Counted from the stretch's first letter, positions 43,962-51,670 are shown. The stretch: DNA of 52,514 bases from Patescibacteria group bacterium (GCA_041675205.1 JBAYUF010000002.1:134568-187081), one strand, 5' to 3'. Made by a program: numbers and translations. Notes: a model not told the origin generated them from the letters alone.

Positions 43962-44041
43962 AGGTAGTCCGACAGTCGCAAATTTTATTGACGACGAACC
44001 GACGCAAAAACTCTTGAGGAAAAAATCTGTAACTGAATCAG

Positions 44042-44473
44042 TTAGGCAAGCTTTATTATGATTAAAGAACCGATAAATATAAAAACTGAGCCTAGGAGGA
44101 AATAGAAATCTAAGCTTGTTTTAAAAATCAAAAAACTAAAAAGTATAACAAAAAATGGGTATGCTATTTCAAAAATTGATGCAGTTGGTGCTCCTAGTAT
44201 TTTTATACCAGAGAAGATAAAAAAATTTGCTAGTGTTGCCAAAATTACGGCAGCAAGAATTAAACTTAGATTTAGTTTTCCGGACGTCAGTAAAACCTTT
44301 AGCGACTGCGTATCCAAAAGTATTATCGGCAACGTAATACTGGCTACGAGAATGGCATCAACAAAAATCAAGGATAATGGAGAAACTTTGTCCAGTATCT
44401 TTTGGTCTATGGTATATACCAAACCCCACGTGACAGCGGCAGCTATGGCGTATATAAACCCAACGGTTTTCAT
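44042..44473 (-). CDS. EamA/DMT single-repeat membrane protein (very AT-rich)
   Basis: 143 aa, about 5 TM helices, ASIFEIAYPFF. Confidence 0.8.
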   Translation of the reverse strand: MKTVGFIYAIAAAVTWGLVYTIDQKILDKVSPLSLIFVDAILVASITLPIILLDTQSLKVLLTSGKLNLSLILAAVILATLANFFIFSGIKILGAPTASIFEIAYPFFVILFSFLIFKTSLDFYFLLGSVFIFIGSLIIIKLA

Positions 44474-44526
44474 AAAGATTTGAAATTTTTTCCCTCACAT
44501 TCCGAATATTTCGGAATGATTTCTAT

Positions 44527-44648
44527 TGCTGCGGGACTACTGACCTCACTTATTTTACCTATCCAAAACCAAGTTTGACTTGGTGGTGTCCCGCCGCTGC
44601 GGGACTACTGTCAGTATAAACATTTTGAAAAATCAAAATGACCACTAA
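44527..44648 (-). repeat. tRNA-Leu(TAA) 3' trailer units (one complete, one truncated)
   Basis: Minus strand: ...TTGATTTTTCAAAATGTTTATACTGACAGTAGTCCCGCAGCGGCGGGACACCACCA, then ...TCAGTAGTCCCGCAGCA truncated. Confidence 0.8.
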
Positions 44649-44734
44649 TGGTGCCCGGGGAGGGAGTCGAACCCTCATGGCCGTGAGACCCGGGGATTTT
44701 AAGTCCCCTGCGTATACCATTCCGCCACCCGGGC
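44649..44734 (-). tRNA. tRNA-Leu(TAA)
   Basis: GCCCGGG/CCCGGGC acceptor, anticodon loop CTTAAAA, long variable arm, encoded CCA. Confidence 0.97.
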
Positions 44735-44741
44735 TTATGAA

Positions 44742-45086
44742 CTAGGAGAAGCTTAAAATAATCAGAGATATAACACCAATTGTTACCCCCGCTATTTGCC
44801 ACCCCGTGAGTGCCTCATTGAATATAAGCACACCGATGACTAAAAAACCAACGATGCTAAGGATTGTCCAGATAACAGATGTTATGACAAGCCCTTCTCG
44901 GAGTAAGGTTGGTATATAAAAAACAGCAGAGCCGATGTACCCAAGCACCGCCAAACCAAAGAGTAGTCGACTAGAATTGATTGACCAAAGTTTTGCAAAG
45001 TAATCACCGGCGACTACCGAGCTAGCACTCAGTAGCAAAAGAACGATAACGGGAATTTTCTCAATTAGTTGGCTACTGACAGACAT
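44742..45086 (-). CDS. Small 4-TM SMR/DMT-like membrane protein
   Basis: 114 aa hydrophobic; IFNEALTGWQIAGVTIG pattern. Confidence 0.75.
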   Translation of the reverse strand: MSVSSQLIEKIPVIVLLLLSASSVVAGDYFAKLWSINSSRLLFGLAVLGYIGSAVFYIPTLLREGLVITSVIWTILSIVGFLVIGVLIFNEALTGWQIAGVTIGVISLIILSFS

Positions 45087-45129
45087 AAAAATGGGTAGTG
45101 TGATTGATGCGCAGGATTTCTAAATCTTT

Positions 45130-45407
45130 CCGTTATCTAGCACCGTTGTCACGGCACTAAAGTTATTAGACTTTTCCGCTATGGTAGCCCCCCGTTGGGA
45201 CTACTGTCGTCGTTTATCTTTTGTCTCCGTCAAAAGTTTCACTATGGTAGCACCGTTGTCACGGCACTCCCGTCCTTGCATTTTCTATCACTATGGTAGC
45301 ACCGTTACTACGGCACTAAAGTCATTAGATTCTTTCCGTTATGGTAGCCCCGCTGCTGCGGGACTACTGATATCACTTATCTTTTGTCTTCGTCAAAAGT
45401 TTCACTA
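45130..45407 (-). repeat. Tandem array of five hairpin units behind tRNA-Met, four ending in GCTACCA
   Basis: Plus-strand anchors atggtagc at ~45181, 45244, 45293 and 45341, with a degenerate fifth unit at ~45135. Confidence 0.9.
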
Positions 45408-45484
45408 TGGTAGCAGGGGCGGGGCTCGAACCCGCGACCTCCGCCTTATGAAGGCGTTGCTCTAACCAGCTGAGCTACCCTGCC
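45408..45484 (-). tRNA. tRNA-CAT (elongator Met most likely; Ile2 not excluded)
   Basis: GGCAGGG/CCCTGCT acceptor (G1.U72), loop TTCATAA, encoded CCA; no initiator features. Confidence 0.93.
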
Positions 45485-45667
45485 ACAGAGATAAGATCCT
45501 ACAACGAACAATGACACAGGTGAAGGGTTTGTGTTGCCCCATGCCCGCCACAATGTGAAACTTTGGGCGGGCTGCCATAGAAGAGATAAAGTAGGGCGAA
45601 GTATAGCAGTCGTGGCGGGCCTCTGACAACCGTAGCCGACGACCAACAAATCAGTTATCATGGCGCC

Positions 45668-46051
45668 ATGACCGATGAAGTATTCAGCCAGCTTGTGCGT
45701 GAAGGAATAGATGCTATTCCAGAGCACTTCGGCAAGCTCGTGGATAATGTGGTTATAACCATAGAAGCAGTAGCGCGGCCCGAGCAGCTGAACGAAGTAC
45801 CCATAGCTCGGGGTCACACACTGCTTGGTTTGTACCAGGGTGTTCCTCAAACCCGTCGCGGACCAAACTACAGCATGGTGCTCCCTGATAAAATAACCAT
45901 TTTTAAAGAGCCCATTGTCGCGCTCGGTAACACCCCTGAGGGTATTCGAAAAATTGTCACCGACACTGTGTGGCATGAAGTTGCACACCACTTTGGTTTA
46001 GATGACGACGCCATTAATGCAGCACAGAAACGACGCCATGCTGCACTTTGA
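45668..46051 (+). CDS. Zincin-like metallopeptidase family protein
   Basis: LLGLYQGVP..R, PDKITIFK.PI, TVWHEVAHHFG. Confidence 0.88.
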   Translation: MTDEVFSQLVREGIDAIPEHFGKLVDNVVITIEAVARPEQLNEVPIARGHTLLGLYQGVPQTRRGPNYSMVLPDKITIFKEPIVALGNTPEGIRKIVTDTVWHEVAHHFGLDDDAINAAQKRRHAAL

Positions 46052-46658
46052 TCTTTCCCAAATTATTCAAACCGTCGGACTCTTGGGCGTCGCCGCTATA
46101 GTTTTTGCAGAGTCGGGGCTTCTTATTGGTTTCTTTCTGCCGGGGGATAGCCTGCTGTTCACGGCCGGACTACTGGCCTCACAAGGTGTTTTTTCATTCT
46201 CATTGCTCATTCTGCTCTCGTTTATAGCAGCAGTGGCAGGCGACAGTGTTGGGTATGCATTTGGGTATCGAATTGGTCCGCGGATTTTTACCCGAGAGGA
46301 TTCTCGATTTTTTAAAAAAGCACACCTTGAACAAGCACACAATTTTTTTGTTCGCTATGGCGCACAAGCCATTGTGCTGGCACGATTCATGCCCATTGTT
46401 AGAACGTTTACTCCGATTCTCGCAGGTGTTGGCAAAATGCCGTACCGCACATTCATCACTTATAATTTTATCGGTGCCGCATTGTGGGCGATTGGTATAC
46501 CGACACTTGGGTTCACTCTTGGTACACTTGTGCCAAGTATTGACGAGTACATTCTCCCTATAATTGCTGGAATCATCGTGGTGTCATTTATCCCGCCAAT
46601 TAAAAGCTGGTGGCAGTCGAGAAAGTCTTCACGAACCCAGGAAAGCACGCTAGGATAG
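46038..46658 (+). CDS. dedA: DedA (VTT/SNARE-associated) membrane protein
   Basis: FAESGLLIGFFLPGDSLLFTAG, ARFMPIVRTF.P..AG; ATG 46038. Confidence 0.92.
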   Translation: MLHFDLSQIIQTVGLLGVAAIVFAESGLLIGFFLPGDSLLFTAGLLASQGVFSFSLLILLSFIAAVAGDSVGYAFGYRIGPRIFTREDSRFFKKAHLEQAHNFFVRYGAQAIVLARFMPIVRTFTPILAGVGKMPYRTFITYNFIGAALWAIGIPTLGFTLGTLVPSIDEYILPIIAGIIVVSFIPPIKSWWQSRKSSRTQESTLG

Positions 46659-46748: not shown

Positions 46749-47028
46749 AAAGCGGAACTTTTGACGGAGACAAAAGATAAATGATGATGGTGTCCCGCGT
46801 AGGCGGGACTCCAAGGAATTCAATCTTTGATTTTTCAAAATGTTTACGATGACAGTAGTCCCGCAGCAGCGGGGCTCCAACAGAGCCGAGTTTTTTACCA
46901 CGACAAAAGATAAATGATGATGGTGTCCCGCGTAGGCGGGACTCCAAAGAGTTAATTTTTCAAAATGTTTAGGATTTCAGTAGTCCCGCGTAGGCGGGAC
47001 TCCAGGGAACTTTTGACGGAGACAAAGG
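46749..47028 (+). repeat. Tandem array of four hairpin units (plus a partial fifth) behind tRNA-Gly, each ending in CTCCA
   Basis: Unit ends at ~46813, 46879, 46946 and 47004; two module types alternate. Confidence 0.9.
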
Positions 47029-51236: not shown

Positions 51237-51670
51237 AAAAAAATTGCTGACTTTGCGTCAGCTATTTTTTTTGGTGAAGGCAAGGAAGGACTCGAACCTG
51301 GGAAAGGGGTCGGGAAAACGGAAGTTTTCCCGCAGCGGAATTATTCAAACCGAGGGGTTTGAAAGAGGAGCTTTGGCGACGAGGGTTCTAGGAGCGAAGC
51401 GACGGAGTCCTCTCCCGCGCACCAGTAATGTATATAACGATAGTAGTCCCGAAATAGCGGGGCACCAAAAAAAATTGCTGACTTTGCGTCAGTGATTTTT
51501 TTTGGTGAAGACAAGGAAGGACTCGAACCTGGGGAAGGGGTTCCGCCAGAGGCGGACAGACGGGGAGCGGAGAAGTTTCTCTGCGGCGGAATCTCGCCCG
51601 CAACACCAGTGCGTAGCACTGCCGGCAGGTATTCTCCTCCAAGGGCGGATCCTCCTTTGGTGGAAAACCG
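51237..51670 (+). repeat. Composite tRNA-Leu(GAG) trailer: inverted and direct copies of the tRNA 3' half plus palindromic modules
   Basis: Antisense T-arm 51288-51299; 20-nt direct repeat 51405-51424; ~78-nt duplication 51231-51309 / 51462-51540. Confidence 0.88.

Follow-up and report, generated by a model that had tools for sequence, protein, structure and literature searches.

Tandem repeats linked to the tyrT and tyrV tRNA genes of Escherichia coli, with units of 178 bp, have been known for decades. The tyrT/rtT repeats have no accepted function (10.1101/2024.07.17.603846); the 3' end of the host tRNA, CCA included, is copied at the end of every unit, so that the transcript can be excised by the tRNA-processing machinery. 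Short tRNA-like structures are also found within longer transcripts as cleavage signals, in the t-elements of plant mitochondria and in mascRNA-type mimics (PMC1920247). Such mimics retain features of both the acceptor and the T-arm, and RNase P and RNase Z cleave them. Here we describe a much smaller tRNA-linked repeat, found in a stretch of 52,514 nucleotides (the window; C2:134568-187081) from the genome of a tiny, uncultured, Uhrbacteria-like member of the Patescibacteria (G000; 1.15 Mb, 36 contigs, 49 tRNA genes).

The host gene of the array is a tRNA-Met(CAU) at 45408..45484 on the minus strand (ARAGORN; Rfam tRNA model, 66.2 bits), with a G1.U72 pair, A73 and an encoded CCA. We assign it to the elongator type, given that the other tRNA with a CAT anticodon (on contig C4) has the initiator C1xA72 mismatch and that a tRNA-Ile(UAU) is also present. 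From this gene outward, five units follow head to tail without gaps (45134-45407, minus strand; 66, 48, 49, 63 and 48 nt), and the minus strand reads exactly as the original prediction of a five-unit array had described it. GCTACCA, the last seven nucleotides of the tRNA-Met gene, terminates units u1 to u4, and of the exactly six copies of GCTACCATA in the 52.5-kb window, five lie at 45180-45414. This pattern is far beyond chance. It is not an assembly artefact either, since a 959-nt region is 100% identical in three other public assemblies. G000 occurs in the groundwater samples of ERZ27247358, SRR6484325 and JGI 3300037067. The sole open reading frame spanning the units, an antisense frame of 94 codons, is without support.

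We compared the locus with that of a congener, R (ENA ERZ27300258 k141_48787; identical in Logan SRR6213120), in which the tRNA-Met is the same and the neighboring proteins share 90% and 96% identity with their G000 counterparts. Unit 1 (45342..45407, minus strand; type A, 66 nt) is not present in R and scores 74.6 bits with the R1 covariance model of the family. It starts with TAGTG and continues through a leader hairpin, CUUUUG/CAAAAG (45381-45399), and a spacer ending in UCAGUA to the microhelix AGUCCCGC-AGCA-GCGGGGCU, which reaches 10 bp if extended (45344-45367), and then ACCA. Unit 2 (45294..45341, minus strand; type B, 48 nt), 87% identical to r1 of R, has the leader TAACGGAAAGAAUCUAAUGACUUU, which forms no hairpin, and the microhelix AGUGCCGU-AGUA-ACGGUGCU, again followed by ACCA. 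Unit 3 (45245..45293, minus strand; type B, 49 nt) is part of a 49-nt indel relative to R and combines its own, differing leader with hairpin B, here with the loop GACA, and ACCA.

Unit 4 (45182..45244, minus strand; type A, 63 nt) is a copy of u1 and is collinear with r2 of R; 55 of the 63 aligned positions are the same as in u1, with 89% identity across a 56-nt repeat, and its microhelix is shortened to GUAGUCCC-AACGG-GGGGCUAC followed by CA. Unit 5 (45134..45181, minus strand; type B, 48 nt), the positional orthologue of r3 in R, is a mosaic in which a leader of the u2 type is joined to a hairpin of the u3 type, with a terminus lacking CCA, GCUAGAUA; the unit end reads GCTAGATA. The array contains a 163-nt higher-order repeat, in which u1 matches u4 (89%) and u2 matches u5 (85%). 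All five units end in a hairpin (-11 to -22 kcal/mol). The native trailer (ACGGAAAGAUUUAGAAAUCC...; 45087..45133, minus strand), whose opening bases are similar to the type-B leaders, is 77% identical to the flank in R and reaches the start of an SMR/EmrE-like gene of 114 amino acids (45086-44742, minus strand).

The design is the same as that of the E. coli tyrT/tyrV repeats and their rtT (RttR) RNA (RF00391), in that units stand in tandem behind a tRNA gene and end in a copy of its 3' end with CCA (four of five units here). However, neither the region 44000-46500 nor the whole window contains a sequence or structure match to RF00391. The units measure 48-66 nt against 178 bp, the copied tRNA end is much shorter, at only 5-7 nt, and it sits in a local microhelix resembling an acceptor stem. 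Furthermore, a single family occupies at least 10 tRNA genes with host-adapted tails and occurs in one Patescibacteria order. In their proposed mode of action the units come closest to the t-elements and mascRNA (PMC1920247), and they do show an acceptor-stem-like helix (7-8 bp), a discriminator base (N73) and CCA, but here the mimic consists only of the 7-8-bp acceptor-like hairpin and encoded CCA, in a lineage without RNase Z. An Rfam scan of 44000-46500 at E<=1 returned only the tRNA and a sub-threshold YrlA match, and a scan of the whole window at gathering thresholds added nothing further. The units match no known Rfam family and form no cloverleaf with ARAGORN or the Rfam tRNA model, by which we rejected a tRNA gene or pseudogene, and our literature search found no publication describing such units.

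The array had been taken for a unique feature, which it is not; it belongs to a set of about 36 two-hairpin units in G000. The canonical and ancestral unit of ∼60-66 nt opens with UARYG immediately behind the CCA of the tRNA gene. Next come the leader hairpin, variable in its stem and with GAC-NNN-GUC at the apex, and an A/U-rich spacer whose last bases are UCAGUA. The unit closes with a GC-rich microhelix of 7-8 bp (GUCCCGC-N4-GCGGGRC), the host discriminator base and CCA. The geometry of the microhelix is that of a tRNA acceptor stem. The hairpin-A module, AGTAGTCCC / AGTAGTCCCGC..GCGGGRC, has 23 copies in G000, most of them in tRNA trailers (Leu-tag, Leu-caa, Leu-taa, Leu-gag, Gly-tcc, Val-gac, Thr-tgt, Pro-tgg and Pro-cgg). 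The R1 model, built from 14 units, finds 36 matches in G000, and at E <= 0.01 it matches all five genomes of the order (28, 7, 3, 1 and 1 matches), which include Candidatus Uhrbacteria CG10_big_fil_rev_8_21_14_0_10_48_11 and Patescibacteria SO_2017_GW1_50; our comparison sample comprised these five species genomes and the congener R. No match was found among 36 other families of the class, and on these matches the family is confined to one five-genome Patescibacteria order.

Among the relatives, the first base of 8 out of 10 matches is base +1 behind a tRNA gene (Gly-tcc, Gly-gcc, Leu-tag, Leu-cag and Tyr). When the microhelix is defined strictly (7 bp, at least 5 GC pairs, N, CCA), both strands of the G000 genome yield 27 matches. 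Of these, 12 are on the tRNA strand and no more than 600 nt downstream of a tRNA gene, a space amounting to 1.3% of the strands. All tRNA-linked copies are oriented with their tRNA gene. We favor, with moderate confidence, an explanation in which the array is a local expansion of a lineage-specific, tRNA-linked repeat family whose units would be transcribed and processed together with the tRNA. Searches beyond the order gave only candidates that we rejected. The pattern CAGTAGTCCCGCNNNNGCGGG hit at least 118 metagenome contigs, and in the 80 loci examined from them the model found no real unit, the hits being chance palindromes. The locus L094 is a plain palindrome, two matches on viral contigs were due to chance, and a scan with the 3' half of the tRNA-Met in more distant Patescibacteria (Shapirobacteria and others) found other tRNAs, and no units, behind this gene.

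Elsewhere in the window, four units and a partial one, all ending in UCCA, stand behind tRNA-Gly(tcc) (46749-47004, plus strand), one unit and a truncated one behind tRNA-Leu(taa) (44583-44648, minus strand), and one behind tRNA-Leu(gag) (51404-51468, plus strand), where an element of ∼190 nt, restoring 20 nt of the tRNA end, precedes it. Gly units 1 and 3 (46787-46813, plus strand) carry AUGGU in place of the usual CAGUA; the UGG of this motif could pair with the unit's own CCA, and the tip would then be sequestered. At the locus L020 (G000 C2:90675-90880), ∼4.5 microhelices are repeated in tandem with a period of 34 nt and no tRNA gene in front; their tails read AACA rather than CCA, and the left flank ends in CAACCA. 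Nested units occur at L025, L037, G000 C3:165165-165285 and C2:113200-113400, where a complete unit directly follows the 5' arm of another microhelix and the older loop, 3' arm and tail come next. On paper, these form a three-way junction closed by a 7-bp stem and NCCA.

The tails of the units match the discriminator base of their host, a specificity that holds down to the single nucleotide. UCCA ends all 10 units behind tRNAs with U73 (Gly-tcc, Gly-gcc and Thr-tgt), and ACCA ends all 19 units behind tRNAs with A73 (five Leu, Met, Val and Tyr); counted by host genes alone, 3 against 8, such a split has a chance of 1/165. In R, copies of one identical hairpin, GTGCCGTAGCAACGGTGC, continue with TACCA in the tRNA-Met trailer and with ACCA in that of tRNA-Leu(taa). 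The constant part of the unit stops at ...GGGRC, which corresponds to position 72, and copies away from tRNA genes carry tails such as CGTA, CTTAA and AACA, without CCA. The tail is thus copied from, or kept equal to, the tip of the host tRNA, and the lack of CCA away from tRNAs gives it the look of a feature taken over from the target, not of a functional part belonging to the unit.

Two unrelated hairpins had been proposed to precede the same GCTACCA end. The shared end holds for u1 to u4, but the hairpins are not unrelated. Hairpin A (AGU-CCCGC/GCGGG-GCU) and hairpin B (AGU-GCCGU/ACGGU-GCU) have the same length and the same 8-bp register, with six of eight pairs in common, and both pairs that differ are altered on both sides (C-G to G.U and C-G to U-A). 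By this comparison the two are homologous, B being A with two compensated pairs. Folded as a whole, the array is far more stable on the tRNA strand, reaching -85.4 kcal/mol there (z -4.5, equaled by 0 of 200 shuffles) against -66.2 kcal/mol on the opposite strand (z -1.5). Across 32 units drawn from five genomes, standard pairs fill 94.5% of the pair cells and double-sided changes occur in 12 of 15 pairs (74 cells), counted among paralogues in an alignment fitted to the covariance model; none of 500 shuffles reaches this level, and slid registers do not come close either. Leader stems are wholly different between genera and yet retain their pairing. The 35 folded microhelices contain 31 G.U pairs, which would read as A.C mismatches on the opposite strand, and at position 2 they have U.G, U-A or C-G. 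As far as sequence comparison goes, these compensatory changes show that both helices, which fold on the tRNA strand only, have been kept and that the structure is under selection on the tRNA strand.

The Met and Leu-taa arrays stand on the minus strand, and those of Gly and Leu-gag on the plus strand, of a single replichore whose GC skew is uniform. Their orientation thus follows the tRNA and not replication, which argues against a mechanism bound to one replication strand.

The array is not invariant between close relatives. Behind its tRNA-Met, R has three units in the order B-A-B*. The segment containing u4, u5, the terminus without CCA and the flank is collinear with r2-r3 of R, and G000 has two additional units: u1, a 67-nt indel adjoining the tRNA and bounded by CCATAG/CCATAA, and one internal B unit, a 49-nt indel that ends inside two copies of hairpin B. 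Both indels could be either gains or losses. The three other G000 assemblies are identical to one another at this locus, as are both R assemblies, so that variation at the strain level is not seen in them. In the outgroup genera G002 and G004, a single A-type unit with an end lacking CCA stands behind tRNA-Met (...GGGGCTACTAA and ...GGGGCTAAAT, respectively), and G001 has a tRNA-Met without CCA and no unit.

This comparison bears on the prediction that the most distal unit has a decayed terminus, pointing to polarized growth from the tRNA side. The decayed terminus is found as described, and since it is collinear in R it would be older than the split between G000 and R, which supports a turnover taking place between the tRNA and an old distal anchor. 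Polarity is thus partly right, in that an old distal end is combined with turnover on the side of the tRNA, with the extra u1 placed at the tRNA-proximal junction; however, the second extra unit is internal, and ordered addition is not demonstrated. Conservation of the distal end likewise reads two ways, with u4-u5 collinear in R but the single outgroup unit most similar to the proximal u1 and not to the distal unit. Given that the indels are bounded at the repeats themselves, unequal recombination between repeats explains them better than ordered addition. Modules are common to different arrays (the 26-nt leader of Met u4 is that of Gly u1), units are nested, and distal units are truncated in some arrays, all of which likewise points to unequal crossing-over or template switching. 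We infer that the array expands and contracts by unequal recombination. A similar picture is seen in the trailer of tRNA-Leu(taa), with three to four units in R (L194 1398-1600), a single one in a third lineage (L196), and one plus a truncated copy in G000; by these sequences the Leu array varies as much as that of Met.

New units and their host tails could arise by unequal crossing-over or by template switching during replication at short homologies (the junctions ...GGC/N73-CCA and CCA/UAG, and the hairpin arms), and the spread of the units would require no dedicated transposase. Growth by such homology-driven exchange would not be strictly ordered from the tRNA side.

A promoter-like site, TTGTCA-18-TATACT with a TG extension (45600..45629, minus strand), lies upstream of tRNA-Met and is conserved in R. 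No terminator was found by scanning the array and trailer (45087-45407, minus strand), and the sole terminator-like site on the minus strand, 45020-45007, lies inside the downstream open reading frame. With these signals, and nothing like a terminator ahead of the next gene, the units would be transcribed together with tRNA-Met, and the array is probably cotranscribed and processed in the manner of a tRNA end. G000 encodes an RNase P RNA (C3:101805-102256). An RNB exonuclease and PNPase are present as well, while no RNase Z equivalog (TIGR02651) scores above the cutoff in any of the five genomes of the order; 16 of the 49 tRNA genes of G000 are without an encoded CCA. Small model substrates consisting of a hairpin and RCCA are cut by bacterial RNase P. 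In the mechanism we propose, RNase P would cut on the 5' side of each CCA-tailed microhelix, the cuts would open entry for 3'-to-5' exonucleases (RNB family and PNPase), which would trim the trailer to the CCA of the tRNA, and the microhelices would be released as mimics of the tRNA tip.

Several observations count against this explanation. The base 5' of the microhelix is A, where bacterial RNase P prefers U. Several units of the Met and Gly arrays have upstream bases able to pair with the CCA or with the discriminator base, which would hinder recognition of the RCCA end. Copies away from tRNAs have no CCA, and truncated and nested units are typical of selfish or decaying DNA repeats. The strand asymmetry of the fold would be equally expected of hairpin sites acting in single-stranded DNA, and the covariation, as stated, was counted among paralogues on a model-fitted alignment.

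A bolder version would make the units a new class of bacterial tRNA-tip mimics, from which RNase P would free stable RNAs of ∼22-24 nt showing the discriminator-CCA end of the adjacent tRNA, and which would spread by copying the host's tip at each newly colonized tRNA gene. We consider it improbable. If it held, one possible role of the units would be that of a minimal punctuation, maturing CCA-encoding tRNAs and separating them from downstream mRNAs in a lineage poor in RNases and without RNase Z. Another possible role would be that of trans-acting decoys or competitors for readers of tRNA 3' ends, such as CCA-end toxins, the CCA-adding enzyme and T-box leaders.

The units might instead be relics or sites of recombination, that is, miniature attL/attR scars, empty CIME-like elements or analogues of integron attC sites, with the hairpin and the 5-7-nt tRNA-end core as the crossover and with entry at the tRNA-proximal site generating the polarity. 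The likeness to such tRNA-anchored elements and attC arrays includes a tRNA 3' anchor, a short repeated core, hairpins in the repeated sites and an older distal end. A host-derived core of 5-7 nt is found at every junction, the extra u1 of G000 lies at the tRNA-proximal junction, and the genes adjoining the arrays differ between genera. Elsewhere in G000, a cassette chain behind tRNA-Trp has junctions reading CCTGCCA, the last seven nucleotides of that tRNA, and other element families end in 17-20-nt copies of the host tRNA end. However, there is no integrase nearby and no cargo, and neither an adjacent IntI-type integrase nor cassettes with open reading frames between sites, as in an integron. 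The genomes have one or two tyrosine recombinase genes each, and the only PF00589 gene of G000 (C2:76445-77014) is ∼103 kb from the array (C2:179701-179974). Units of 48-66 nt contain no genes and are too short to circularize as duplex DNA. The core is only N73-CCA and one or two further nucleotides and varies with the host tRNA, so that one recombinase would need to accept many cores, and it compares poorly with integrase att scars, which are direct repeats, ∼15 nt long or longer, of the 3' part of the tRNA on either side of element DNA; upstream of the shared 5-7 nt, the hairpin of the unit differs from both the T-arm and the acceptor of the tRNA. The indels between congeners are bounded by the repeats themselves, the second of them ending inside hairpins and not in the core, the leader hairpin covaries even though it lies away from the junction, and no phage- or plasmid-like contig with a unit was found. 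We regard recombination sites as unlikely.

A selfish hairpin of the REP or MITE kind would account for some of the same features, the microhelix with its GTAG head being the REP palindrome and an unrecognized enzyme moving single-stranded DNA to tRNA CCA ends and to the loops of existing copies. REP and BIME elements, too, combine a GTAG head with a GC-rich imperfect palindrome and are intergenic, multicopy and clustered. The ∼36 copies in the 1.15-Mb genome of G000 against only 1-7 in sister genomes, the units nested after the 5' arm of another microhelix, the 34-nt tandem array remote from any tRNA and the mixing of leader and microhelix modules between arrays all fit such an element. Nevertheless, Y1/RAYT transposases are absent from the five genomes in a search with positive control genomes, and sites away from tRNAs have neither terminal inverted repeats nor target duplications. 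The units start at CCA and always follow the orientation of the tRNA, never forming inverted pairs of the REPIN or BIME type, the arrays occupy both strands of one replichore, and the second conserved hairpin and the host-specific tails set the units apart from REP elements. Orthologous units have also been kept across genera with compensatory changes. A selfish hairpin is in our view quite unlikely, and an origin from RAYT or IS200-IS605 elements was rejected, with PF01797 in none of the five genomes of the order and the positive controls matched. Very improbable is the suggestion that the hairpins are ordinary terminators or attenuators of tRNA genes and the GCTACCA repeat a by-product of duplicating a tRNA end with its terminator. 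GC-rich hairpins do stand downstream of the tRNA gene, and the Leu-caa and Leu-gag trailers do duplicate a terminator-like hairpin with a CACCA end, but none of the five hairpins is followed by a U tract, with (N)CCA and UAG there instead, the terminator scan of 45087-45407 was empty, and neither the 7-bp length nor the N73-CCA tail nor the UCAGUA motif is a terminator feature.

Two other origins were considered and rejected. Template switching of a reverse transcriptase at CCA ends has no candidate enzyme linked to the units, the sole reverse transcriptase of G000 being that of a type VII-A2 retron; it is encoded at L042 (G000 C4:107239-109029; PADLOC RT_VII-A2, E 8e-87), beside a DUF3800 protein, in what resembles a defense island. 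A phase-shifted model, in which units beginning with CCA were inserted into a tRNA gene lacking it, does fit the arrays behind tRNA-Met and, in G001, the tRNA-Met without CCA, but not the single units behind the Thr, Val and Tyr tRNAs, which keep their own CCA.

The repeat family favored here is a small and clean tRNA-end repeat, with one family at at least 10 tRNA genes, compensatory changes across three genera, tails that match each host's discriminator base and a copy number that varies between congeners. Given that the genomes have no recognizable RNase Z although a third of the tRNA genes are without CCA, the family offers a testable handle on two questions: how ultra-small bacteria finish the 3' ends of their tRNAs, and whether tRNA-linked repeats are processing signals, decoys or recombination debris. 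The tRNA ends in these genomes appear to be hot spots of homology-driven rearrangement, which matters for the annotation of islands and cassettes beside Patescibacteria tRNA genes.

Other elements were also seen at tRNA genes of G000. A second family, of purine-rich elements of ∼170 nt, stands behind tRNAs without an encoded CCA (Asn, Ser-gct and Ser-cga; C1:200712-201070, C1:128350-128650 and C2:12790-13090, all outside the window), and each copy ends in a 17-20-nt copy of the T-stem and acceptor strand of its host. The tRNA-Trp locus (L039 and beyond, G000 C5:17846-31067) contains at least eight further junctions ending in CCTGCCA, several of them after a T-arm-like mimic and followed by terminator-like hairpins, in an arrangement resembling a gene-cassette chain. 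The tRNA-Met gene itself has, in its 5' leader and in G000 but not R, a 91-nt insertion (45492-45582, minus strand) with a CCCGCC...GGCGGG hairpin, flanked by direct repeats of the leader end and the first five bases of the tRNA (TCTCT..TGGCAG). This insertion and its duplicated tRNA terminus suggest that the 5' ends of tRNA genes also collect hairpin modules.
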